Part shown: one piece after another, positions 2,895 through 26,346 of the stretch | How positions within the stretch are numbered: the first letter of the stretch is position 1 | How the letters are laid out: every line of letters starts with the position of its first letter | NCBI GenBank assembly: GCA_040754655.1 | Contig: JBFMCE010000002.1 | Coordinates: 5,777-69,776 of the forward strand | Reading direction: 5' to 3' | Source: Bdellovibrionota bacterium | Lineage (GTDB): Bacteria; Bdellovibrionota; UBA1018; UBA923 | DNA: 64,000 nt | Notes under the pieces: generated by a model | The model's input: only the letters and a program-made list of their open reading frames with translations | Told to the model about the DNA's origin: nothing | The model's database searches: none | Position numbers and translations under genes: made by a program

Positions 2895-3615
2895 CGATGC
2901 CCTCTTTATTCAAAGTGTAGATATTAAAGACGTGACGGATCACGTGTTGCGCGACGTTTCGAACTGGCACGCCCCCAGGCGTTTCACCTCGTTCAACCCC
3001 GCGATGGGCATGGCCGTGAAAGACGATGTCGGCTCCGACCGCATCGATCGCTTCCCCGAGCAGGTAACTTCCTAGAAACGGATAGATCTCTCGTTTCTCG
3101 CCGTGAAGGGTGTCTTCAATGGGCGAATAGTGCATCAACACGATTTTATAGTCGGTATTCAACGCCTCGAGATGCTCACGCAAAACTTTGGCGTGCCCTT
3201 TGGTGTGCCGAATGAATGCCTTCATTTCAGGCTCGCCAAAATCGCTGCCAGACGCGCCTACAAATCCACCGCCAAACCCTTTTAAGCCCACGATCCCGAC
3301 AGTGCAGCCCTGCAGCGAGAGTTGAAGATTCTCTTTCTCAAGCACATGCACTCCGGCGTTTTTAAGCGACTCGCAAATATAGCTTTCGTGATCAAGATGA
3401 TAATCATGATTGCCCAACACGGCAACGACTGGAATCGGGCAGTCATAGAGGTCTGAGGCGAGAACCTCGCCTTCGGCGGAGTGGCCTGTTTGAGTAAGAT
3501 CACCTGCAAGCAACAGCACATCCGCTCGGCCTTCGAGCAACTTTAGATACTTGCGAAGCCTGCCGGCAGAGTTCCGGTCAAAGTGAACATCTCCTGCGGC
3601 AGCGATTCGTATCAC
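2854..3615 (-). CDS. Calcineurin-like metallophosphoesterase
   Basis: Metallophosphoesterase motifs GDVHFD, LLAGDL, LGNHD and GHAH are present. It uses a GTG start that overlaps the upstream gene's stop as GTGA. Confidence 0.8.
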   Translation of the reverse strand: MIRIAAAGDVHFDRNSAGRLRKYLKLLEGRADVLLLAGDLTQTGHSAEGEVLASDLYDCPIPVVAVLGNHDYHLDHESYICESLKNAGVHVLEKENLQLSLQGCTVGIVGLKGFGGGFVGASGSDFGEPEMKAFIRHTKGHAKVLREHLEALNTDYKIVLMHYSPIEDTLHGEKREIYPFLGSYLLGEAIDAVGADIVFHGHAHRGVERGETPGGVPVRNVAQHVIRHVFNIYTLNKEGIVTHSSLAPHGTSA

Positions 3616-4811: not shown

Positions 4812-5114
4812 ATGGCTAAGAAGAAAAGCTCGCGCTCAAAGAAGTCTTCACGTTCGCCTTTAGGATCGACTTTAAGCAAAGCTCGATCGAAAAAGAAAAG
4901 CCCACGCAGTCGTGAACACTTTTCTGAAATGGGGAAAAAAGGCGGCCGAACATCGCTCGGCGGTTCACGCCGTTCGGCAGCCAAGCCGTCGTCTTCGTCT
5001 TCATCTGCGCGTTCACGCAGCCGCACGCGTAAAATGGAGCCCACTCGTGAACTGCTTGCCGACATCAGCAAAATCGGCAAATCGATTCGCAAAAGAGTAA
5101 AACAAGCACTTTGA
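4812..5114 (+). CDS. Small highly basic KGG-motif stress-protein-like protein
   Basis: Near-perfect SD AAGGAGATAAACAATG. The sequence HFSEMGKKGGRTS resembles the KGG stress-protein repeat. The protein is Lys/Arg/Ser-rich and low-complexity. Confidence 0.6.
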   Translation: MAKKKSSRSKKSSRSPLGSTLSKARSKKKSPRSREHFSEMGKKGGRTSLGGSRRSAAKPSSSSSSARSRSRTRKMEPTRELLADISKIGKSIRKRVKQAL

Positions 5115-5194
5115 GAGTTTTTCGGGCGCCCCGGCAGCATTTGATTTTGCTCGGTGGCGCCCAGTGCAAATTGCCTGATGGAGGCGTTTGAAGC

Positions 5195-5590
5195 GTGGCA
5201 CAACAGAAGATGCTTTTGGTCGAAGATGAAGACGACTTGCGCACTCTTCTTGAAGAATACTTGAAAGACAATGGTTTGGATGTGATCTCATTCGGTTCGG
5301 CAGACAAAGCTCTGCCTTATTGGCGGCGGCATGCCGATGAAATTGATCTCATTCTTACTGACATGCGCATGCCCGGGAACATTGACGGAATTGGACTCGC
5401 CCAAGAAGTGCGGTCGCGCACGGGCCACCAACCAGCCATCGTCATGATCTCAGGATTTGAACCGCCTCCAGAAAGATTGTTGCAACAACTCTCGATTACC
5501 GAGTTTATTTCAAAACCCTTCCGAATCTCAGAGCTTTCCAAGCTCTGCCAGAAAAAGATCGATCAACAGAGCGCCGAAGGCTCGGCTTAA
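5195..5590 (+). CDS. Single-domain response regulator (CheY-like receiver)
   Basis: Receiver motifs LLVEDEDD, DLILTDMRMPG and FISKPF. The GTG start has GGAGG 9 nt upstream; an alternative ATG lies at 5210. Confidence 0.75.
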   Translation: MAQQKMLLVEDEDDLRTLLEEYLKDNGLDVISFGSADKALPYWRRHADEIDLILTDMRMPGNIDGIGLAQEVRSRTGHQPAIVMISGFEPPPERLLQQLSITEFISKPFRISELSKLCQKKIDQQSAEGSA

Positions 5591-5597
5591 GCTGAAA

Positions 5598-6143
5598 TCA
5601 CAGGAAGATCGGTTTGAAGTGCCGAGGCAGGTGGAAGTCTGGTTTTTCTTGCGCAGGCAGGAACAAACTCCAGTAAGACCGGGGCTTGCCCAGAATCGCG
5701 AAGGCGTTTCCTTGAAGATCCTCTTTGGCCCCTGTCCATCCCAACTTCTTTAGTGGAATGCCGAATTCCGCTTCCCAAGCCGTCTCACTCAAGACCTTTG
5801 AAGAATGGGTGAATCCCGAAGAAAAGTCTTTATTGAACTTCTTGCGCGGTTTGAAGATCTCAAGCTCAAAATACTGGCCCAAAGGGCTGATCTGGAACTC
5901 GTAGTACGTAGGCTGAGGAGAGGCGCGTAAAAACACCTCGACTACATCCCATTCCCAAAGCCCCCAGGCTGATGCACCCATTGGCAACTTTGAATTCGTA
6001 AAAGATGGGACGCCGTCCACCTTGAACTTTGCCTTTAAAAGCGCCGCCCTTGAATCGAGGTCAAATTCAACTTTGACTTGAGTTTTTTCAAGCCCTGAAC
6101 TCCCCGACTCAGAGTGTACAATCTTGAGACTCTGGATCGCCAT
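5598..6143 (-). CDS. Hypothetical protein (181 aa)
   Basis: This is the last gene of a co-directional minus-strand cluster. No confident family assignment. Confidence 0.4.
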   Translation of the reverse strand: MAIQSLKIVHSESGSSGLEKTQVKVEFDLDSRAALLKAKFKVDGVPSFTNSKLPMGASAWGLWEWDVVEVFLRASPQPTYYEFQISPLGQYFELEIFKPRKKFNKDFSSGFTHSSKVLSETAWEAEFGIPLKKLGWTGAKEDLQGNAFAILGKPRSYWSLFLPAQEKPDFHLPRHFKPIFL

Positions 6144-12956: not shown

Positions 12957-14162
12957 TTAAAACGCTTTGAATCGGATCGTGCCAGTGGCAAGCACCGCGC
13001 CCCGGAAAGATTCCCTCACTTGGCTCATGTCCATCCGTTTGGGATTCTTGATCACGTTGCTGTCGTATTCTGCCCTAGCTTGGGCACCCAAGAAAAACTT
13101 TAGGGCATCTGACCTGAATACTTCATAGTTTACGCTCCCACGAGCGCCCACGCTGTGCCCCATAAATCCTCGTGAACTGAGGCCAAGTGAGTCTGACGTA
13201 TTCTCAATCACCGTGCCGTACCCGCTATAGTCGTAGCTCACAGGATCACAATAATAAGCACCTTCGCTATACCTGTCGTAACAGGTGTGCCAGGCCACGT
13301 TTGAATAACTGACATTTCCTCTGAAACGATCGCTGTATTCGTTGTTTCTGCGCACTGCCTCTGAGCCTATGCGCAAGGTGTAATAAGCCACTGCTTCAAT
13401 AACCAAGCGCTTGTCACCGCTACGGTACTTATACTCAATCGAAACCGGCAGACGAAAACTGCGTTCCGCGATCTCGTAGCGAGTGTCAACCGTGCGCTCA
13501 AGCGTTCCGCCGCCAAAGTAGACCTCGCTGTTGTCAGCTCGCGTATTGTCTGCGCGAGAATTGTGGGCATACTCGGGCTCACCATCAATTTTGGCATAAT
13601 CAGGTTCGTAAAAAACCCCGGGTGGCACAAGCACCGCATCTGAACGCGTTTGAGAGCTCTCAAAAGAGCTTTCATAGGTGCGCTTGGTGTAGGGGTTGAT
13701 CCCTATACGGGCAAGCAATTCTTGGTCTTTCGATTTGTGCATTTTAGCCACTACGCTCACTTCGATAAGTGAAAGCTCTAAATAACGATCTGCTTCGACT
13801 CCCTTGCCGGGCAGCCCCACAATTCCCGGAAAGCCTGTAAGTTCAATTCCCCAAGTCTTGTTGAAGAAATACCGACCTTTCGCCGAGACTTCCCACTCTG
13901 CGATCGATGCTCGTTGGTCGCGTATACCAGCCATAAAGCCCATATCAATGCGCCCACTCAAACGATCTGGATCACCAATCATCAACACACCCTTAAGATC
14001 AACCACACCTCGAGTAGAACCCTCTGTGTAGCCAGAAGCGTGGTAAGTGCCGGTGCCCACTTTGGTATCAAAGATAAGATCACTGTCTGCTTGAGAGAAG
14101 GGTGCCGTCAGCACAGCGCCACAAGTGACCATCAACATGCCAAGAAGCTGCTTTGTATTCAT
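12957..14162 (-). CDS. Outer-membrane beta-barrel protein (hypothetical)
   Basis: Signal peptide MNTKQLLGMLMVTCGAVLTAPFSQA. Amphipathic beta-strands end in ...RFKAF (C-terminal Phe). Confidence 0.55.
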   Translation of the reverse strand: MNTKQLLGMLMVTCGAVLTAPFSQADSDLIFDTKVGTGTYHASGYTEGSTRGVVDLKGVLMIGDPDRLSGRIDMGFMAGIRDQRASIAEWEVSAKGRYFFNKTWGIELTGFPGIVGLPGKGVEADRYLELSLIEVSVVAKMHKSKDQELLARIGINPYTKRTYESSFESSQTRSDAVLVPPGVFYEPDYAKIDGEPEYAHNSRADNTRADNSEVYFGGGTLERTVDTRYEIAERSFRLPVSIEYKYRSGDKRLVIEAVAYYTLRIGSEAVRRNNEYSDRFRGNVSYSNVAWHTCYDRYSEGAYYCDPVSYDYSGYGTVIENTSDSLGLSSRGFMGHSVGARGSVNYEVFRSDALKFFLGAQARAEYDSNVIKNPKRMDMSQVRESFRGAVLATGTIRFKAF

Positions 14163-14272
14163 GAAAACCCCCGGTCGCCTTATTAGAGGGGGTGTTCAGA
14201 CCTGACAAGGAGCGGTGCGGCATTTGTTTTTTAAATCACTGTATTTAATGAGAGCAGTCTAGCTGTTCTCAC

Positions 14273-15055
14273 TCACTGAGAAGCGCGATCTTTCTTAGTC
14301 TTTTGTTCGGCCACATTACGAGCTCGTTTTGCGGCCTTTCGTTTGCCGTTTTTGCTGCCAGATACAGGTTGCTCAGCCACCGCAGTACTTGAAGTATGGA
14401 TAGCCTTGATGCCTTGAAGACCCGCTTCGAGTTGCGCGACCCTTTCGTAGAGGTCTTGCCTGGCAAGTATTTCGTCTTGCGCCTGAAGCTTTCCTTCCAA
14501 GGCTTTTACCTTTGCCTCGAGCTCGGCGATTTTCGCCATCGCCGCCTCGTGCTCTTTATTGGCTAACCTGCGTTCTTGATCGACCATATCGGCATATTCA
14601 ATTTCATCCATTTGGATATGGATGCCTGAACATTCTTCTTTCGGTATGTTTGAAACCTGGCTTTGAGCCCACTGAGCTTCCATACTGAATTTATTGCCAC
14701 GCGTAGCATTTATTTTTAAATCCACCCGCGACCTTGCAAAGATTTCATCAAAATCTCTATCCAAAAACTGAACGTGGCAGCGGTTGTCATCACCCACGAA
14801 GCGCTGCTCTAAAAGAGTCTGACCTTTCTGAGCACAAATCTTGTCATCAACGGTTTTGCCAAACAATTGTTTGGTTTCAGGGTCAAGCACTTCGACACGA
14901 TACTCAATGCAATCGCCGTTGAGGGTGGTGTACATTTTATGGCCTGACTTGTACGGCATGTTTCGAAAACCCACGGGCTTTTGACCTGCCATCACAGTTG
15001 AGGCGATCGCAAGAGTCGCACAAGCTAGAATCAAATTTTGGGTGGAAAATTTCAT
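14273..15055 (-). CDS. Secreted Cys-containing coiled-coil protein, paralog 1 of 3
   Basis: SD AAGGAG 7 nt upstream of the ATG. Signal peptide, then an N-domain with conserved Cys (NRCHVQF...), then a coiled-coil (AKIAELEAKVKALEGKLQAQ) and a Lys/Arg-rich tail. Confidence 0.65.
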   Translation of the reverse strand: MKFSTQNLILACATLAIASTVMAGQKPVGFRNMPYKSGHKMYTTLNGDCIEYRVEVLDPETKQLFGKTVDDKICAQKGQTLLEQRFVGDDNRCHVQFLDRDFDEIFARSRVDLKINATRGNKFSMEAQWAQSQVSNIPKEECSGIHIQMDEIEYADMVDQERRLANKEHEAAMAKIAELEAKVKALEGKLQAQDEILARQDLYERVAQLEAGLQGIKAIHTSSTAVAEQPVSGSKNGKRKAAKRARNVAEQKTKKDRASQ

Positions 15056-15067
15056 GGGGTTACTCCT

Positions 15068-15841
15068 TTAAGGCTTTAGCGACAAGGGTTTTAAGGAAAC
15101 AGAAGAAGTTTTGATCACAAGCTGCTGTTGGCCATCGCGCCTACGGGCGCTGCGAAGTTCAGCTTCAAGCTTTGCGATACGGCGGGCAGAACGTTTTTCT
15201 TTGGCTTTCAGCTCAGAGATCTGAGCTGAAAGGGCATCAAGTCTTGCAACGACATCAGACAAAGACTTTTCATTCTTTGAGTCTTTGACCATTTGCAGGT
15301 ATCCATTCTTACTAATAACCCAGTAACCTTTGCATTGGCTCGATTCGCCGGGATTCGTGACTTCTGAGACAGTAAGAGGTTCCCAAGAATCAATGGACGA
15401 AGAGTTTCTTGAGTAAAGTTCACGGTATTTAATTCGGTTTTCAAAACTTGAAATCAACTCGACATGGCACTGATTGCCTTCCAGTCGTTTTCGAACGATT
15501 CGGTCTTCGCGTTCTTCTTCACAGTCGTCGTTTTCCATTTGGCGATCAACTAGGATGAGGACATCAGGAGACTGGGGGTTTTGGAGATCGGCTTTTTTAG
15601 TTTCAACCCAGAGGCTATGACAACCGCCTTTCGAATCGACGAAACGCGCCGAACCTTCAAAGGTTGCAGAATCTAACGGGCTCATCAGCTCTTGCGCCTT
15701 GGCTGAGTCTTCGTAATAAGCGAGTAAAAAAACCGCTAGCGCCAGCTTCTTGAAAATCATGAAGGCTAAAAACGCCTTGCGATGCCGGGAAGCAGCCTTG
15801 ATCAAGCCTTGAATTTTACTATCGAGATTAAATTCAATCAT
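15068..15841 (-). CDS. Secreted/anchored Cys-containing coiled-coil protein, paralog 2 of 3
   Basis: Same architecture (GNQCHVELISSFENR, then coiled-coil ISELKAKEKRSARRIAKLEAELR). The ATG overlaps the upstream paralog's stop as ATGA. An alternative start at 15760 would give a classical signal peptide (MIFKKLALAVFLLAYY). Confidence 0.6.
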   Translation of the reverse strand: MIEFNLDSKIQGLIKAASRHRKAFLAFMIFKKLALAVFLLAYYEDSAKAQELMSPLDSATFEGSARFVDSKGGCHSLWVETKKADLQNPQSPDVLILVDRQMENDDCEEEREDRIVRKRLEGNQCHVELISSFENRIKYRELYSRNSSSIDSWEPLTVSEVTNPGESSQCKGYWVISKNGYLQMVKDSKNEKSLSDVVARLDALSAQISELKAKEKRSARRIAKLEAELRSARRRDGQQQLVIKTSSVSLKPLSLKP

Positions 15842-16551
15842 TTCTTTTTCGCACCCTTTTCTGAGAGCTTGCGAGAATACGGTACTTTCCTAACGGAAGC
15901 CCCGTCTTCGTAAGTCTTGCTTGCGATTATGGCCCTCGCCTTCAACAAAAGATCAGTTCGATCATCTTCAAGTTGCTGCAAGCGCGTGAGTGCTTCGTTT
16001 GTAGCGCCACCCCTCATCGATCCATTCTGATCAGCGTTCTCAATGGTCTTTCTTACATCATTGATGTCAGTATCGATTTGGGCGAGCCTCGCAATTTGCT
16101 CATAGGTGTCGTAGATCGAGGCATCTAGGGTAAAGATGCCATCGCAGACGCTCTTGTTCATAAAACTGATCGGACCAACGTGTTCCCACTCTAAAGGAGA
16201 ACTAAACGCAGAAAGATGCTGCAATTGGTCCGGCCTGAAACTTTCAAGTAAACCTCGGATAGAGTACATTTGACACTTTTCATTTTCGACCCTGTATTGA
16301 ACTAGGTACCGAACAGAAATAGAGTCGCAGGCCGAGCCCTTATCTACCCTGCCTGCCAGTTCGTCGTTTTTCTCGGCATCCTTCCTGATCTCGTAGCTGA
16401 CACAAAGACCTGTATCCGTCTTGCTGTGGATTCTAGTGCCATTGTCATACCTTTGAAACAACGACTCAGACTCAGATTCACCTTGAGCGGTATCAATCAA
16501 TATTATTGATAGAAGGGCCATTCCAATCGCCCGATAAGCGTTTTTTTTCAT
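15838..16551 (-). CDS. Secreted Cys-containing coiled-coil protein, paralog 3 of 3
   Basis: The start is reassigned to MKKNAYRAIGMALLSIILIDTAQG (signal peptide). It has the NEKCQMYSIRGLLESF motif and a C-terminal coiled-coil. Confidence 0.6.
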   Translation of the reverse strand: MKKNAYRAIGMALLSIILIDTAQGESESESLFQRYDNGTRIHSKTDTGLCVSYEIRKDAEKNDELAGRVDKGSACDSISVRYLVQYRVENEKCQMYSIRGLLESFRPDQLQHLSAFSSPLEWEHVGPISFMNKSVCDGIFTLDASIYDTYEQIARLAQIDTDINDVRKTIENADQNGSMRGGATNEALTRLQQLEDDRTDLLLKARAIIASKTYEDGASVRKVPYSRKLSEKGAKKK

Positions 16552-16964
16552 TTCATCTCTCTCTATAAAGAGAGATAACTGCAACCTTGGTACCAGCAAA
16601 AACACAACCTAAGTCATTGAAACCATTCGGTGATGTAGGTCTGACACACCCTAAAAACATTGTTCAATGTAAACGCCTTCGACACCCCGAGAGAGCCTCT
16701 TTCGCTATTTAGGATAGTTCCTGTACCGCCACCCGTGGGTGGTGAGTCTCAAAACTTATCGGTTATTTTCTTTTTGCCCAAGCTGACGAAAGTTTCTTAT
16801 CGAGAGTTATGAGTTCAAGATTCAGTTCGTTCGCCAGCCAGAAATAGCTAGCATTTTGCTTATGGAAAGTAGGCACTTTTTTCCTCTCTCATACGGCCAA
16901 ATACGCAAACGTACTCAAGTTATCTCACCCCCCAGCCGAAACGAGTGTTGAGAGAGAATAAATC

Positions 16965-18032: not shown

Positions 18033-19022
18033 ATGGAGCACTTCTTTACCCTCACTCCTGAGCGCATGCTAGACTCGGTCGAGCGCGCGCTAAGATCAAA
18101 TCAAACTGGCGTGCGAGCCACTGGCAGATGCCTGGCGCTGAATAGCATGGAAAATCGCGTTTACGAAATCGAGCTCGACAACGAAACCAGCGTTGTAACC
18201 AAGTTCTATCGGCCCGGCCGATGGACTAAGGAAGCGATACTGGACGAACACCAGTTCATCCGCCAACTCGCCGAGGCCGAGGTACCCGCTGTCACCCCGC
18301 TGATTTTGGCGAATGACACGACTCTTGAGCAGTCAGAAGATGGGATCTACTTTGCGGTCTTTCCAAAAGTTCGTGGAAGGATCTTGCAAGAACTTGACGA
18401 CTTGCAACTCGCGCAAATGGGGCGCCTTTTGGGAAGGCTGCATAACGTCGGCGAGAAACAAGCTGCTCCTCACCGCGTGACGCTCAGTATTGAAACTTAT
18501 GGCAAACAGAGTTTGAATTTCATTGAGAACTCTGGCCTTCTCCACCCGAACTTCAAATCGCGTTATCTTGAGGTGGTGCAAGCCCTTCTTGCCGAAATTG
18601 AGCCGCTGCTCGCAGGAGTAAGAGCGTTCAGGGTTCATGGCGATTGCCATCTTGGAAATGTGCTCTGGCAACCTAATGGCCCTTTTTTCATCGATTTTGA
18701 TGACATGGTGGTTGCACCGGCGGTGCAAGACATTTGGATGGCGGTAAGAGGACGAGGATCCGAAGCCGACCGCCAACGCGATGTCTTGCTTGCAGGTTAT
18801 GAACAAATGCGCGCTTTTGATCGAGGGACATTGGTACTCGTAGAACCGCTGCGCTCACTGAGAATGATTCACTATGCTGCGTGGATTGCGCGAAGGTGGG
18901 ATGACCCGACCTTCAAAAACGCTTTTCCAGATTTCGGCACGACGAAGTACTGGCAAGAAGAGATCGTGGATTTGAGTGAGCAATTGCAAATCATTAGGGA
19001 ACGGCAAACGCAGTGGAATTGA
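18033..19022 (+). CDS. srkA: Stress response Ser/Thr kinase SrkA (RdoA/YihE family)
   Basis: Collinear with E. coli SrkA: NSMENRVYEIEL...FYRPGRWT...ILDEHQF...FRVHGDCHLGNVLW...PFFIDFDD...PAVQDIWM. 329 aa. Confidence 0.85.
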   Translation: MEHFFTLTPERMLDSVERALRSNQTGVRATGRCLALNSMENRVYEIELDNETSVVTKFYRPGRWTKEAILDEHQFIRQLAEAEVPAVTPLILANDTTLEQSEDGIYFAVFPKVRGRILQELDDLQLAQMGRLLGRLHNVGEKQAAPHRVTLSIETYGKQSLNFIENSGLLHPNFKSRYLEVVQALLAEIEPLLAGVRAFRVHGDCHLGNVLWQPNGPFFIDFDDMVVAPAVQDIWMAVRGRGSEADRQRDVLLAGYEQMRAFDRGTLVLVEPLRSLRMIHYAAWIARRWDDPTFKNAFPDFGTTKYWQEEIVDLSEQLQIIRERQTQWN

Positions 19023-19043
19023 GTTGCAGGCGCTCCAGAAACA

Positions 19044-19073
19044 GAATCGGGCACCGTTAACCGCTAACGGCTA
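19044..19073. repeat. 30-nt direct repeat, copy A (GAATCGGGCACCGTTAACCGCTAACGGCTA)
   Basis: Identical to copy B at 19794-19823. It contains the imperfect palindrome CCGTTAACCGCTAACGG. Confidence 0.8.
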
Positions 19074-19083
19074 ACAGCACAAC

Positions 19084-19380
19084 TCACCTGGGATGAACCA
19101 ATCGATAAACGATTGCACCAAGCCTATCGGCAATAGAAAACACTTCTTTCTGATCAAGGATTTGCAGAATACTTTGAGTCTCTCTGAGTGACCCCAACGC
19201 AATGGCATAAAACCTTCTTTGTTCAGGTTGAGTCGTTTTTGCAGAACCTTCGCTGAGATTTAAAACCACACTCAAGCTTGCCCGATCAAGTTGGTCTTTC
19301 AGATGGCGTTTTGCTTTCAACTTCTCACATTGCTTGTAGAGCGTAAGCGCTAATTCATAGGCTTGAAAATTTTTGAGCAT
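19084..19380 (-). CDS. Four-helix-bundle protein (23S rRNA intervening-sequence protein / Avd-like family)
   Basis: Family pattern FQAYELAL.LY......K..L.DQL.RAS.SVVLNL.EGSAK......F..IA.GS..E. The ATG sits with AAGGAGG inside the intergenic inverted repeat. Confidence 0.75.
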   Translation of the reverse strand: MLKNFQAYELALTLYKQCEKLKAKRHLKDQLDRASLSVVLNLSEGSAKTTQPEQRRFYAIALGSLRETQSILQILDQKEVFSIADRLGAIVYRLVHPR

Positions 19381-19387
19381 AAGGTCT

Positions 19388-19459
19388 TTCCTCCTTCATT
19401 TTGAAAAAATTGAGTTCTCATCGTGGTGTGAACTCAATTTTTTCAAAATGAAGGAGGAA
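19388..19459. repeat. Perfect 30-bp inverted repeat with a 12-nt spacer between the divergent paralogs
   Basis: The arm TTCCTCCTTCATTTTGAAAAAATTGAGTTC pairs with GAACTCAATTTTTTCAAAATGAAGGAGGAA. Each arm carries the SD of one flanking gene. Candidate operator or RBS-sequestering hairpin. Confidence 0.8.
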
Positions 19460-19467
19460 CAATAAAG

Positions 19468-19785
19468 ATGATTCAAAATTTTCAAGCCTATGAATTGGCA
19501 TTACAACTCTACCGCAAGGTTGAGACGATCGAATTAAAACACCATCTGAAAGACCAACTCCTGAGAGCAAGTCAGAGTGTCGTGCTTAATCTTGCAGAAG
19601 GTTCCGCAAAACCGACTTGGAAAGACAAAACAAGGTTTTATGCCATTGCGTTTGGATCAATGAGAGAAGTTCAAGCCGTGTTTGATCTCATCTTGTTAGA
19701 AGATGCTGAAACACTAAAACTTGCTGATCGTATTGCAGCTTGTCTTTACCGTCTCACTTACCGCAACCGGCCACCGGATCGGTGA
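19468..19785 (+). CDS. Four-helix-bundle protein (23S rRNA IVS / Avd-like family), diverged paralog
   Basis: About 55% identical to the divergent neighbour, with the same family pattern. SD AAGGAGG 8 nt upstream. Confidence 0.75.
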   Translation: MIQNFQAYELALQLYRKVETIELKHHLKDQLLRASQSVVLNLAEGSAKPTWKDKTRFYAIAFGSMREVQAVFDLILLEDAETLKLADRIAACLYRLTYRNRPPDR

Positions 19786-19793
19786 CCGATTCG

Positions 19794-19823
19794 GAATCGG
19801 GCACCGTTAACCGCTAACGGCTA
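19794..19823. repeat. 30-nt direct repeat, copy B. It also forms a hairpin followed by a T-run, so it can act as a terminator.
   Basis: Identical to 19044-19073. It is followed by CTATCCGTTTTTT and could terminate the + paralog; the convergent MFS gene ends at 19832. Confidence 0.7.
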
Positions 19824-19831
19824 TCCGTTTT

Positions 19832-21187
19832 TTAATGCCCTGCTGCTGCCTTTGCCGTCTTCGGTCTCGCATTCCAAAGAGTGAGCATCAACAAACCACC
19901 GACGACCGCAAAACCGATCATCGAAGGTCCCCAAGCCGCCCAGCCAAAACGATCGAGAAGATAACCCATTCCAATGCCAACAAAAGCGCCGCCAATGTAT
20001 TGCATCCCATCAAACATTCCGGCTGCAGTAGCCGCGGCTTTCTTGCCGCCAAAATCCATCGAGGCGGTCCCTGAAAGCATTGAATGCACAACGCTAATCG
20101 AGAAGGAATTCAAAACAAAGGCCGCGATAATCCAGCCCAAGCTTGGCGCCTTCCAAATAACAGCAAGACAAGCCACTTGAACGAAGTAACCCAAGAATGC
20201 GACCGGAGTGCGACGACCTTTGAAAACCCAGTCTGAAATCGTTCCCGCAAAAAAAGCGCCCGCGATACCGGCAATGACCACGGCCGCAGCCCCCTTTTGA
20301 AAAACACCGGATTCCAGAGGAAGTTTTTGCGCCTCGATCATGTAACGTGGAAACCACTGCTCAAACCCATGTCGCACAAAGCCCGTGCAAAACTCGGCAG
20401 CCGCGATCGTCAGTGTTACCGGATTGGTGAAGACTTTCTTAAAAACATATTTAAAACTGACCTTCTCGGTATCGCCGCTGGAAGCATCTTGGACATCAAG
20501 CGCGGGCAAGCCGCACTCGTCAGGTCCATTGCGCACGAACCGGTAGGTCAAGTACGCCATGACAGCCACGACGATCGAAGGGACAAAAAAGACCCACTGC
20601 CACGGAAGGATGGTCACTAAAACCCCGCCGATGAAAAAGATCAAAGCCCGCCCGCTTTGAATCATGCTGCCGAAGATCGCCGAGAACACGCCGCGCTCGC
20701 TGATGTGGAACCAACCTGAGTTCACCTTGATCAAAGCCAAAGCGCTGTAAGATTGAAAGTACGAGTTCATCGACCAAACTACGGTGAAATACAAAAGAAG
20801 AAATTCGCCTGTTCCCAGAAAACCAAGATAAGCGCCCAAACCAAAAAGAAAGTTAAAAACAACCGTGCCTGTCGCGCCAATGAGCATTGCGCGCCTTCCA
20901 CCGATCTTATCCGCGATAGGCCCGTTGAAAAGCGCTGAAAGACCATAAATCATCAGGGCAGAACTGATGATGGTCCCCACTTGGGTCTTATCCCACCCGT
21001 ACTGCGTAGAAAGAGACTTGTTTGCAAACGAGAGATTGTACCTGCCCATGTACATCGCCGCATAGGTGAACCCCAAGGTCAGCCAGTTGATACCCCGCCT
21101 GCGTCGAAATGCCATCGTATAACTGTCCGTAAAACGCGCTGGCTTTCGAATGGCGGCTCCGTTCATTGTGGCAGAAGTGTTTGACAT
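19832..21187 (-). CDS. MFS organophosphate:phosphate antiporter (GlpT/UhpC-like, OPA family)
   Basis: 12-TM MFS protein. GlpT-like motifs include GRYNLSFA, G..DKIGGRR and PRYMIE. The start is chosen at MSNTSAT because SD AGAGGGGA lies 7 nt upstream. Confidence 0.7.
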   Translation of the reverse strand: MSNTSATMNGAAIRKPARFTDSYTMAFRRRRGINWLTLGFTYAAMYMGRYNLSFANKSLSTQYGWDKTQVGTIISSALMIYGLSALFNGPIADKIGGRRAMLIGATGTVVFNFLFGLGAYLGFLGTGEFLLLYFTVVWSMNSYFQSYSALALIKVNSGWFHISERGVFSAIFGSMIQSGRALIFFIGGVLVTILPWQWVFFVPSIVVAVMAYLTYRFVRNGPDECGLPALDVQDASSGDTEKVSFKYVFKKVFTNPVTLTIAAAEFCTGFVRHGFEQWFPRYMIEAQKLPLESGVFQKGAAAVVIAGIAGAFFAGTISDWVFKGRRTPVAFLGYFVQVACLAVIWKAPSLGWIIAAFVLNSFSISVVHSMLSGTASMDFGGKKAAATAAGMFDGMQYIGGAFVGIGMGYLLDRFGWAAWGPSMIGFAVVGGLLMLTLWNARPKTAKAAAGH

Positions 21188-23521: not shown

Positions 23522-24253
23522 TCAAGGCCATTCCAGCTCTGCAAGCAATGCGGCATGGTCTGAAAGGTTCGCCCAGATATCGGAATGCAGGCAGCGCGCC
23601 GCGCGTATTTCAAAACCATGGTAATAAATTCGGTCTAAACGAAGAATCGGCATGCGCGCAGGAAATGTGCGTGCGTGCCTTTTGTGACGGCGGTGATAGG
23701 CTTCTTCCAGGCCCAGCTCCTTCTTGAAGAATTTTGAGAGCCGCAGAGCCCAGTCATTGAAATCACCGGCGACCACCAACCCGTGCCCGAAAGCGACCTT
23801 CTGCTTGATGCGTTCGCAGAGCAATGCCGCTTGCAATTGCCTGTCGCGTTCGAACAATCCGAAATGCACGCACAGCAAATGCATCTCGGGCCGAGACTCA
23901 AAAGGTTTGATCACGGCATGCAAAAGCCCTCGCCTCTCAAGAGAACTCGTAGACACGTCTTGGTTTTCCCAATGCAAGATCGGATATTTGCTTAAGATCG
24001 CATTGCCATGGTGGCCACCTTGGTAAACGGCGTTTTTCCCATACGCAAAATGCGGCCAGATAGAGTCGGCCATGAATTCAAACTGCGGCTCCATCTCGCC
24101 CTGCTTCTCGCCCATGACCTCTTGAAGGAACACCACATCCGGCGAGACCGTACGAATGGCCTCTCGGATCTCGCTCAATACATAGGCGCGATTACGCACG
24201 GTAAAACCCTTGTGGATGTTGTAGGAAAGAATCCTCAAATATTTTGCGCTCAT
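23522..24253 (-). CDS. Endonuclease/exonuclease/phosphatase (EEP) family protein, YbhP-like
   Basis: EEP motifs LSYNIHKG, VVFLQE, GDFND and SDH. The start MSAKYL is reassigned; its ATG overlaps the upstream cls-fusion stop as ATGA. Confidence 0.75.
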   Translation of the reverse strand: MSAKYLRILSYNIHKGFTVRNRAYVLSEIREAIRTVSPDVVFLQEVMGEKQGEMEPQFEFMADSIWPHFAYGKNAVYQGGHHGNAILSKYPILHWENQDVSTSSLERRGLLHAVIKPFESRPEMHLLCVHFGLFERDRQLQAALLCERIKQKVAFGHGLVVAGDFNDWALRLSKFFKKELGLEEAYHRRHKRHARTFPARMPILRLDRIYYHGFEIRAARCLHSDIWANLSDHAALLAELEWP

Positions 24254-26346
24254 CTCAAGCGAAACACTCCGACGCCGACAGTAGCAACAATGTAGAAAAC
24301 AAAAAACCCGATGCCGCCATTGAAACCCAGGGTCTCCGATACTATCCCGCTCAAATAAGAAAGCCCGGCATACAACGACGACAACCATACTCCCGAGGCC
24401 AGAAACCACCGTACCGGAAAAGAAAACACTCCTTGATAACCGATCTTCGACTGAAAACCGATCCTGGGATCTGCCATCACCAAGAGCAGAAGCCAGAAAT
24501 TTCTCAGCCCGAAAGTGCGGTGCAGCCTTTCAGAAGAAGCCTTGCGATAAAAAACCCGAGCCACGGTAGGAAAGATTCTGGCAAACGTATATCCGGCCAG
24601 GGCAGACGAAAAGAGCGCGAAAAAAGAAGTGAGTCCCCCTGCCCTCGGCCCGAATTGGAGACCCGCTGCAATCACCCCCAGGCCCACAGGCAACGGCACA
24701 AGCCAGCTGGCGCTTAAGAACAAGATATAGAGCACGGCCCAGGCGAGGGGCTGGGGCTGAAAGGTAGGGCCAAGGGCTTTCATGGCTGAACCCAGCGCCA
24801 CGAACGCCAAACCATGGGTAAACAATAGCGCACCCCAAGTCAGAAACGGAAGCGCTCGCCTCATCCTCTTGCTGCGCTCAACAGAAAGACGCGCCTTCAA
24901 GAAAAAAGCCCATGGAACATTGGGATCAAAGAGCCTGCCTATCGGCAGATGCTTGGCGAGCCATGCCTCAAAGGTGCGGAAATAAGGCAACCAAGCCTCG
25001 CGAAAGTGCTTCAGATAGACATGAGGTTCGGTTCGAAACTCGCGCACATGAATGGTCTCTTCCGGATAGAACAGGCTGAACGTCTTTTGCCCCCAATGCG
25101 CGACGATGCGTTTGGCAAGGCGGGCGATGCGCAAGCGCGTCTCTTCAGTTTCGCCCACTAAAGTGAGGTTGAGCTCAGTGTCGAGCCGAAACGCGCGGTT
25201 ATTGAGGTTGGCAGAGCCTATCGCCATGTAGCGGTCATCAACGATCGCGACCTTTGAGTGCACGTAAATGCTCTTCTCATCAGAGAGGTCCGGAGCCAGA
25301 GCATACGGGCATCCCGCGACAAACAACGTCCGCGTTTCTTTTGCGACCTTCTCAAGGCGTTCTAAAAGCGCTGTCTGTAAAACTCCCATCATTCGAAATG
25401 CCGTCGACCCATTGAGTGGCGCCGGAACGACAAGTAGAATTTTCAAGCCCGTTCCCGCCCGCGCTCGCATCAAAGTTGAAAGTTCATCATTGATTTGCGG
25501 CGACCAGTAGTACTGGTTCTCAATCACCAACTGGTGGCGCACCGACCGGATAAGGTCGTGGATGAGAAACTCGCTTTCCCTCACCAAGAGCGGACGACGC
25601 AAATCGACCGAAGCCCGGGTTCGGCTGATCAACAGCCGGTATTTTCCCGCTCCTTCCAAACGCGCCATCCGCGGCCGTTCGGGAAACGGAATCGAACTGA
25701 TCGCTCGCCAACGCGCTCCGATGTACTCAACCAGGTCTACGGCCACCTCTCCCCGCACTTCAACCGTCATGTCGTGGTAAGGGCGATGTTCTTCTTTTTC
25801 GTGATCCAGCGAACGCCTGCTATCGGAATAGAAATGTTGGGGAGAATCCCAACGGTCATCGCAGATATCGACCCCGCCCACAAAGGCGGTTTCACCATCA
25901 ATGATGACGAATTTTTCATGATGCGATCCTCCGAGCGGGTGCCGGTTATCAAAGACGAAATGCAGGCGCTCGTGCAGCCCCTCCCAAACCCAGCTTTGCA
26001 GGATCTCGCGTTCGAAGACATAAAAATACGCATAGTCCCAGACGAGAAAGTAGATGTGGAAGTCAGGCTTTTCGGCGCACAAACGCACGAGAAATTCCCT
26101 AAAGCTCTCATGACGCGACGTCGAAAGCTCGATGCGCGAATCGAGCTGCCACCCTACGAAAATCGCATAAGAATAGGCCTTGCCCAAACACTCTTGAAGA
26201 CGCTCATAATAAGGGCCGGCTTCCCAAATCGGCTCCCAGACCTCACTCGTCGTTTGACGATAGTAGGCGCGCTGAGAGAGTTCTTCTTTCCAGTGAAGTG
26301 GTCCGGGCTTCTCTGTCTTTGCCCGCAACGCGCTTTGAAATTTCAT
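24250..26346 (-). CDS. Cardiolipin synthase / phospholipase D (two HKD motifs) fused to a C-terminal YbhN/UPF0104-like membrane domain
   Basis: HKD motif 1 is HHEKFVIIDGETAFVGGVDI and HKD motif 2 is YVHSKVAIVDDRYMAIGSANLNNRA. The C-terminal ~200 aa is polytopic. Confidence 0.75.
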   Translation of the reverse strand: MKFQSALRAKTEKPGPLHWKEELSQRAYYRQTTSEVWEPIWEAGPYYERLQECLGKAYSYAIFVGWQLDSRIELSTSRHESFREFLVRLCAEKPDFHIYFLVWDYAYFYVFEREILQSWVWEGLHERLHFVFDNRHPLGGSHHEKFVIIDGETAFVGGVDICDDRWDSPQHFYSDSRRSLDHEKEEHRPYHDMTVEVRGEVAVDLVEYIGARWRAISSIPFPERPRMARLEGAGKYRLLISRTRASVDLRRPLLVRESEFLIHDLIRSVRHQLVIENQYYWSPQINDELSTLMRARAGTGLKILLVVPAPLNGSTAFRMMGVLQTALLERLEKVAKETRTLFVAGCPYALAPDLSDEKSIYVHSKVAIVDDRYMAIGSANLNNRAFRLDTELNLTLVGETEETRLRIARLAKRIVAHWGQKTFSLFYPEETIHVREFRTEPHVYLKHFREAWLPYFRTFEAWLAKHLPIGRLFDPNVPWAFFLKARLSVERSKRMRRALPFLTWGALLFTHGLAFVALGSAMKALGPTFQPQPLAWAVLYILFLSASWLVPLPVGLGVIAAGLQFGPRAGGLTSFFALFSSALAGYTFARIFPTVARVFYRKASSERLHRTFGLRNFWLLLLVMADPRIGFQSKIGYQGVFSFPVRWFLASGVWLSSLYAGLSYLSGIVSETLGFNGGIGFFVFYIVATVGVGVFRLR

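Follow-up and report, generated by a model that had tools for sequence, protein, structure and literature searches.

Proteins of the PF05635 family are widespread small proteins that are found in the intervening sequences (IVSs) of ribosomal RNA (rRNA), within operons such as those of CRISPR systems and, in the form of Avd, in diversity-generating retroelements (DGRs), where Avd binds structured RNA together with its reverse transcriptase (RT). To our knowledge, neither the function of these proteins outside DGRs nor their selfish-like scatter has been explained by anyone. Two further classes of sequence bear on the locus considered here. Transcripts of repetitive extragenic palindromic (REP) sequences and REPINs, of enterobacterial repetitive intergenic consensus (ERIC) sequences and of Correia elements contain stems that can be RNase III substrates and can alter the expression of neighbouring genes. 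Template switching and gene conversion across palindromes are known from the quasipalindrome hotspots of E. coli, and long perfect palindromes are normally unstable in bacteria. The present locus was found in a stretch of 64,000 nucleotides (nt) from a Bdellovibrionota bacterium (assembly GCA_040754655.1, contig JBFMCE010000002.1), hereafter the window, and consists of two divergent PF05635 genes, A and B, separated by a perfect palindrome and flanked by identical repeats. It probably represents an accessory cassette that exists in many copies, each of about 0.7–0.8 kb, in which a repeat tract, gene A in reverse orientation, a palindromic leader, gene B in forward orientation and a second tract follow one another. 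The family assignment, the accessory status and the homogenization of the palindrome at the DNA level are held with high confidence; a function of the hairpin at the RNA level, to which folding predictions point, is put forward tentatively; and confidence in any mechanism of mobilization is low.

The gene pair and its junction in the window

The locus is made up of the following features, in the coordinates of the window.
19023–19831, whole inserted segment of 809 nt, between the srkA stop (19022) and the stop of a major facilitator superfamily (MFS) gene (19832)
19044–19073, left 30-nt direct repeat, equal to the entire left heptamer (7-nt-period) tract; Tandem Repeats Finder (TRF) reports period 7 (ACCGCTA) at 19053–19075
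19084–19380, minus strand, gene A (A-type paralog): 98-amino-acid (aa) basic four-helix-bundle protein; PF05635 1.5e-17, TIGR02436 6.7e-18, isoelectric point (pI) 9.7
19388–19417, left palindrome arm, carrying the Shine-Dalgarno sequence (SD) of gene A on the minus strand (complement of CCTCCTT, 19390–19396)
19418–19429, central spacer or loop of 12 nt, TCATCGTGGTGT, itself a weak mini-palindrome (CA..TG) inside which the fold adds 3 pairs
19430–19459, right palindrome arm, carrying the gene B SD AAGGAGG at 19451–19457
19468–19785, plus strand, gene B (B-type paralog): 105-aa basic four-helix-bundle protein; PF05635 1.2e-14, pI 9.1
about 19760–19829, right heptamer tract (CCG-N4), with approximate coordinates read from the sequence
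19794–19823, right 30-nt direct repeat, 100% identical to the left copy
19816–19835, plus strand, terminator-like hairpin AACGGCTATCCGTT (AACGG-CTAT-CCGTT, 19816–19829) followed by a T-run, abutting the MFS stop

The products of both genes scored above the curated cut-offs of PF05635 (64.1 bits for A and 54.9 for B; cut-off 33.8) and of TIGR02436 (64.9 and 55 bits; cut-off 24), and are 57% identical to each other as proteins and 63% as codon-aligned DNA. The AlphaFold2 (AF2) model of B has four helices (pLDDT 92) arranged in the bundle known from 2GSC and 2RLD, which were also its best structural matches in the PDB (2gsc, XCC0516: E 5e-4, template-modelling (TM) score 0.76; 2rld, BT_0352: TM 0.71–0.74), and a profile search against the PDB found 2gsc at 9.6e-9. 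A preliminary description of this DNA had proposed two four-helix-bundle genes of about 55% identity, from a family that comprises the 23S rRNA IVS proteins and Avd; the pair and its place among the IVS/four-helix-bundle proteins are upheld by these results, but Avd itself (4dwl) was merely a remote fold match to B (rank 17, E 0.28, TM 0.59), as was 8ub7, and it was not matched at E ≤ 0.01 in the sequence-profile search against the PDB. The product of gene A is 100% identical to P0112, a protein from a Bdellovibrionota metagenome-assembled genome (MAG) at NCBI, and an orthologous MAG protein, P0001, is 93% identical to the product of gene B, whose C-terminal tail (RNRPPDR) is encoded by the beginning of the right heptamer tract. 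All 194 full-length members of the family (194/194) are basic, with a median pI of 9.6. The proteins had no match in PADLOC or PHROG and no copies of the family were found in viral contigs, and the idea of a defence-system or phage protein was rejected.

Membership of a family that includes Avd, together with the remote fold matches to 4dwl and 8ub7, would suit a degenerate or non-canonical DGR in which one gene copy serves as template and the other as target. Such an element would have an RT, and there is none within about 10 kb on either side (no RVT domain in open reading frames (ORFs) of at least 160 aa between 8.4 and 28.8 kb of the window), nor is one a recurrent neighbour of the 161 loci described below. 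Besides, Avd is not detected by sequence profile, and the mismatches between A and B show no adenine bias, being spread over all codon positions and all four bases (A 30, C 29, T 26 and G 25 in gene A; A 32, C 33, T 25 and G 20 in gene B). The earlier statement that this is not a canonical DGR therefore stands and, with neither an RT nor an adenine-biased pattern of template and variable repeats (TR/VR), the DGR reading as a whole is effectively refuted and deserves hardly any credence.

The centre of the locus corresponds to what the preliminary description had reported, namely a perfect 30-bp inverted repeat with a 12-nt spacer and the SD of one gene in each arm. It occupies most of the 87 nt between the two genes, and none of the shuffled sequences reproduced the perfect arms; an alternative reading gives arms of 33 nt at 97% identity and a loop of 6 nt. 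The left arm is thus an anti-SD sequence for transcripts of gene B. The predicted hairpin has a free energy of -47.8 kcal/mol as RNA (z -9.9) and of -33.8 kcal/mol as DNA. The claim that divergence begins inside codon 2 does not hold, as the identity of the arms already stops 7–8 nt before each ATG and the SD-to-ATG spacers, AAGACCTT and CAATAAAG, are unrelated to each other. At a lower level, 71%, the inverted repeat extends into the first 207 nt of both coding sequences, so the entire unit goes back to an old inverted duplication whose centre has stayed pristine. A scan of 18950–19900 against Rfam gave just sub-threshold, generic miRNA-precursor-like matches and no rRNA match, and a known RNA family was rejected.

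The identity of the two 30-nt direct repeats was confirmed at 100%. The right copy is the end of a longer tract of 7-nt period, and the 30-mer (…CACCGTTAACCGCTAACGGCTA) forms part of a repeat series of this type. It occurs in two copies only in the window, even with three mismatches allowed; its 20-nt core had no exact match in 185,579 species genomes, and no other heptamer tract of this kind lies in the rest of the window. The idea of a genome-wide REP-like repeat was rejected on these grounds. As for the proposal that the right repeat doubles as a terminator, a terminator-like hairpin is indeed present but overlaps the repeat just in part.

The accessory status of the unit emerges from syntenic regions found via homologs of SrkA (70% identical). 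At loci L163 and L164 the gene order is that of the window (AmiA-like, srkA, MFS on the minus strand, NUDIX, HAD), the ends of srkA and the MFS gene overlap by 4 nt and there is no unit. At L165 the junction holds an unrelated 187-aa ORF (5041–5604) followed by a solo heptamer tract, CCGTTAACCGTAAACCGCTAGCCGCTAGCC (5610–5695), which abuts the MFS stop; this tract, CCGTTAACCGTAAACCGCTAGCC..., is of the same CCGTTAACCG type as the repeat in the window. At L162 a gene pair lies upstream of srkA, that is, on its other side. Compared with these relatives the 809-nt segment is an insertion, and the predicted variation between srkA and the MFS gene is found: empty at two loci, with a solo tract at one and with the pair on the other side of srkA at another, the presence/absence polymorphism that marks an accessory cassette. 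The 187-aa ORF of L165 has no family assignment on record.

A recurrent unit in Bdellovibrionota

Scans of metagenome and species-genome collections with the family alignment yielded 160 loci in addition to L001, 161 together. Homologs of B come from Bdellovibrionota MAGs, and the named loci belong nearly all to Bdellovibrionia, Bacteriovoracaceae, Oligoflexia or relatives, often several per MAG; the family counts 262 cluster representatives (50% identity) at E ≤ 1e-10. L001, with a gene 77% identical to B, has the same anatomy in different sequences: a divergent, truncated partner, a 38-nt inverted repeat free of mismatches around a 13-nt spacer, and flanking 24-nt CCGA-rich direct repeats. 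The 161 loci hold 245 PF05635 genes, with 63 head-to-head pairs (median start-codon spacing 84 nt), nine tail-to-tail pairs and 79 genes that have no divergent partner.

A strong inverted repeat at most 35 nt from the start codon precedes 142 of the 211 genes that have an intact 5' end and enough upstream sequence (106/125 paired genes and 36/86 singletons), and many singletons scored as lacking the hairpin have a mismatched, degenerate form of it. The hairpins measure 20–42 bp and each arm has, from the outside inwards, the SD (GGAG), an A/T homopolymer run and a GC clamp, followed by a spacer of about 13 nt; loop length peaks sharply at 13 nt and the spacer often reads YCAC..GTGR. While this layout is constant, the sequence of the stem differs at every locus, and this includes the loci of one MAG; the copy sequence shared within a genome that characterizes REPs, REPINs and miniature inverted-repeat transposable elements (MITEs) is accordingly missing. 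In the singletons (e.g. L012, L013, L033, L048, L109) the polarity of the loop is fixed, T-rich on the sense strand (T 167 vs A 99), and the upstream heptamers are of CCGTTTT type on that strand; loops of pairs have no net polarity and flip. Some tail-to-tail pairs lie 25–40 nt apart (L013, L030, L043, L068, L078), and in several of them (e.g. L043, L068) each gene has its own outward-facing SD hairpin, the two of L068 being near-identical.

Partners within a pair are 44–66% identical (median 57%), less than either gene is to its nearest relatives at other loci, and 31 of 37 pairs combine an A-like with a B-like gene, the types being assigned by relative bit scores and a midpoint-rooted neighbour-joining (NJ) tree giving no clean split into A and B clades. 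The pair is therefore ancient and heterotypic and has multiplied as a whole; it is not the product of independent recent duplications. No neighbour gene is conserved (the biggest neighbour cluster is present in 7 of the 161 loci, and the top clusters are all housekeeping), and a conserved partner gene was accordingly rejected. The units lie preferentially between convergent host genes (29/62). One predicted protein of 1193 aa, P0249, contains 10 separate PF05635-like stretches; it may be a genuine multi-domain protein, or else a tandem array was mis-called as one read-through ORF.

Degenerate tandem repeats of CCG-N4 or GGCA-N3 type, with a period of about 7 nt, border nearly all units on either side. 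The reading of the 30-nt repeats as discrete recombination sites, one of the possibilities offered earlier, is hence not supported; they are segments of tracts found at nearly all units. Long direct repeats between the flanks (25–60 nt, 85–100% identical) occur in 11–12 of 40 complete units and inverted flanks in one unit; the direct repeats are embedded in heptamer tracts and far exceed usual target-site duplications in length. In one MAG, two copies of the unit show 85% identity across genes, hairpin and about 120 nt of tract but no relationship further out, and the CCGTTAACCG motif recurs at L082, L083 and L162 in different genomic contexts. These two observations, together with the lack of any other such tract in the window, indicate that the heptamer tracts belong to the unit and travel with it. 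The 30-nt direct repeats could then be parts of two flanking tracts that were duplicated or recombined at integration, and if these recombined with each other, the unit would be lost and one tract would stay behind, a remnant such as the solo tract at L165. L010 contains three 67-nt heptamer-rich repeats (2528–2594, 3308–3374, 3442–3508) in the array-like order repeat, unit, repeat, 67-nt spacer, repeat.

A tblastn search of plasmids for such genes of other phyla gave one weak match only, in Nostoc, and in the literature no paper on this architecture was found, PF05635 genes being noted only inside cas loci and beside the RTs of DGRs. The element family is recurrent, clade-wide, apparently undescribed and found so far only in the predatory Bdellovibrionota, and the earlier suspicion of an undescribed small module is borne out with the addition that the module recurs. 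Several Bdellovibrionota-type units were also seen in MAGs labelled 'candidate division WWE3' (JBBRLF01; L085–L087, L104, L146) and 'Pseudomonadota' (JAZDIZ01; L097, L125), both of which are probably mis-binned or mislabelled. At L108 (about 3070–3200) a run of N lies exactly in the palindrome of a MAG contig; assembly and scaffolding break at such hairpins, so the copy numbers in MAGs are probably underestimates.

Homogenization of the arms and possible roles of the hairpin

The arms of the palindrome change together. In comparisons of units with at least 80% identity in their coding sequences, 21 differences in the stem are mirrored on the two arms vs 7 confined to one; by inspection of the arm sequences, the mirrored ones include a 1-nt indel in L127/L135 and a change that separates L100 from L103 (98% identity in the coding sequences). 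The loop is reverse-complemented between otherwise collinear relatives in L015/L017 and L091/L092, both flagged by script, and in L084/L096 and L037/L039, by inspection. Across 78 non-redundant hairpins, stem positions 1–18 are at least 88% Watson-Crick paired (at least 90% except for position 4), and at each of these positions all four types of pair occur, with G:T at just 0–4%. The mirrored changes, the inversion of the loop and the almost exclusively Watson-Crick pairs argue against selection alone and for DNA-level copying, through intramolecular template switching or gene conversion, as the process that maintains the identity of the arms and also inverts the spacer. These data, along with the absence of the unit from the same junction in relatives, support one of the models originally offered, a cassette with gene conversion between its arms. 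The sharp edge of identity near the start codons might mark the point where conversion meets purifying selection on two diverged paralogs.

Whether the hairpin also acts in RNA is a separate matter, on which the position of the SD bears. Of the 98 hairpins of paired genes, 64 have the SD within the perfect arm, as do 22 of the 33 hairpins of singletons. Folds were predicted for positions -120 to +3 and scored for an SD fully paired to an upstream partner, which was the case for 92% of paired genes (median minimum free energy (MFE) -54 kcal/mol), 78% of singletons (-42 kcal/mol) and 32% of neighbouring genes taken as a control (-26 kcal/mol). Singletons retain the anti-SD arm although no gene there needs an SD, and in the degenerate singleton hairpins the SD and anti-SD ends are kept as the middle decays; both argue that pairing of the SD is of importance. 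Sequestration of the SD in any transcript that crosses the centre, the RBS-sequestering hairpin of the preliminary description, is thus plausible on these predictions and is the role favoured here. An RNA of this kind, one possible source of which is read-through from convergent host genes, would form a long perfect stem burying the SD; the two genes would then be repressed or coupled in their translation for as long as this stem was not cut, opened or bypassed. Such a stem would be a plausible substrate for an RNase III-type enzyme, as in the rRNA IVSs that encode proteins of this family. Analogy with Avd and the IVS stems suggests that the hairpin or the repeats may be bound by the basic proteins A and B.

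Several observations weigh against a mobile cassette with a leader that functions as RNA. Should each mRNA start inside its own arm, no RNA hairpin would form. A sigma-70 promoter scan in and around the palindrome found none; the attack-phase sigma-28 (FliA) of Bdellovibrio has the consensus TTAAG-N16-CCGATA (PMC3627812), and CCGAT-like heptamers were rejected as its -10 boxes, since they are not enriched (4/77 sense vs 6/77 in the reversed control). A bidirectional terminator at the centre is not a conserved feature either, the order being A-run, stem, T-run in the window, L001, L003, L010 and L052 and the reverse in L088, L100, L114, L031 and L110; with the polarity of the runs not fixed, a terminator role is not general. 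At L007 (936–1031), L074 (pair centre) and L162 (3321–3405) a heptamer tract stands in place of the palindrome, and both SDs are lost while both ORFs are intact, so the hairpin is dispensable, at least in the short term; as L007 is 97–99% identical to L010 outside the replaced centre, the replacement there is recent. The mismatches in singleton stems are not enriched for wobble on the sense strand (C:A 11, G:T 3): the G:U signal expected of selection on RNA was looked for and not seen, and this is unlike pure selection on RNA structure. With regard to mobility, 28 of the 40 complete units have no detectable flanking direct repeats, neither an excision circle nor a mobilizing enzyme was seen, no integrase, transposase or Rep gene recurs near the 161 loci or in the window, and all loci come from MAG or metagenome assemblies. 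Part of the L007 replacement matches DNA just outside the right repeat of L010.

Some of these points would be accounted for if the palindrome had no function of its own and were simply the centre of an old inverted duplication, kept perfect by template switching during replication (quasipalindrome correction) wherever selection does not oppose it, and containing the SDs simply because every gene must have one. Mirrored substitutions, loop inversion and pairs that are Watson-Crick only suggest copying over selection on RNA, and the absent wobble enrichment and the palindrome-less variants go in the same direction. What this explanation leaves aside is that singletons keep a full anti-SD arm, degenerate ones keep its SD and anti-SD ends, and the layout of SD, A/T run, GC clamp and spacer of about 13 nt is preserved at more than 100 loci with unrelated sequences; the persistence of long perfect palindromes also suggests some benefit. 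We therefore regard it as unlikely.

A DNA operator or bidirectional promoter, bound by a dimeric or oligomeric regulator, possibly A/B themselves, that co-regulates both genes, is very unlikely. Its appeal is in the divergent geometry, the basic proteins, the constant spacer and the semi-conserved YCAC..GTGR centre. An operator, though, would not require strict complementarity over 30–40 nt, the arms are unrelated in sequence from locus to locus, even in one genome, the hairpin is found in singletons as well, and no promoter-like hexamers were found. The shared operator proposed in the preliminary description is not supported, on account of the first two of these points.

The hairpin and the heptamer tracts could also be cis-acting DNA sites for mobilization or replication, used for instance by an HUH/Y1-type enzyme acting in trans, with heptamers akin to iterons and the PF05635 genes as cargo or accessory. 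The build, in which short iterated repeats adjoin a GC-clamped stem whose loop measures about 13 nt, is reminiscent of rolling-circle origins; the units, moreover, are multi-copy, variably present and in unrelated contexts, and about a quarter of them have direct repeats. This explanation is nevertheless quite improbable, given the lack of a recurring transposase, Rep or integrase noted above, a loop that is weakly conserved in sequence and flips in orientation, the absence of units from viral contigs, and the systematic position of the SD within the arms, a placement superfluous for a site that acts purely as DNA. A rather unlikely extension of the cassette reading is a selfish gene cassette without a transposase of its own, whose A and B proteins would bind their own hairpin and heptamers and which would move by excision and re-integration via the repeat tracts or by hairpin-primed or template-switch copying.

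Elsewhere in the window, Pfam at E ≤ 1e-4 gave nothing for four consecutive minus-strand ORFs of 401, 260, 257 and 255 aa (12957–16605). An Exo_endo_phos ORF (23522–24409, minus strand) and a PLD-domain ORF (24250–26346, minus strand) share about 160 nt, and one of the two start codons is most likely over-extended.

Relation to known systems

With these units, PF05635 proteins gain a defined and repeated genetic architecture, comprising an SD-containing hairpin, flanking heptamer tracts and both empty and occupied sites. The units also provide an unusually clean natural case of concerted evolution in a palindrome, with mirrored substitutions and a spacer that flip-flops, where 100% symmetry of a non-coding region is compatible with divergence of the paralogs on either side to 57% identity. 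In practical terms, hairpins of this kind break assemblies and the units are under-counted in MAGs. Were the selfish, transposase-less cassette true, it would give the PF05635 'IVS proteins' a function and would also explain related ORFs in rRNA stems and in mid-operon positions across many phyla.

Among described systems, the 23S rRNA IVSs with a PF05635 protein (Leptospira, Coxiella and others) share with the present units the protein family, the association of a small ORF with a long, near-perfect stem of the kind cleaved by RNase III, and a sporadic presence, as in a selfish element. The unit in the window is, however, not in an rRNA gene but between genes for SrkA and an MFS transporter; its stem, located upstream of the gene, includes the SD, whereas the stem of an IVS brackets the ORF, and it has two divergent paralogs and flanking heptamer tracts. 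The Avd proteins of DGRs (4DWL, 8UB7) are likewise basic four-helix bundles of about 100 aa, to which B is a remote fold match (TM 0.59), but the unit has no RT, no TR/VR and no adenine-specific mutation, and its proteins have no sequence match to Avd.

REP/REPIN, ERIC and Correia elements are, like the units, multi-copy intergenic hairpins that often lie between convergent genes. In the units, on the other hand, the sequence of the stem is not conserved between copies, just its pairing and layout, and the hairpin is always attached to one gene family, with no REP-associated tyrosine transposase (RAYT) or other transposase partner found. Integron cassettes and their attC sites offer another parallel, as small, promoter-poor gene units bounded by repeated sites and present or absent at a given locus, and the array-like order of repeats at L010 is reminiscent of them. 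They differ in that the units have no integrase, are bounded by degenerate 7-nt tandem repeats and not by attC hairpins, and are dispersed over the genome instead of arrayed at one platform. Finally, the behaviour of the arms matches the quasipalindrome correction known from the thyA and lacZ hotspots of E. coli, in which the arms change together, pairs are Watson-Crick only, indels are mirrored and the spacer is inverted; there it is known as a mutational mechanism at arbitrary sites, whereas here it would recur on a conserved functional element throughout a gene family.

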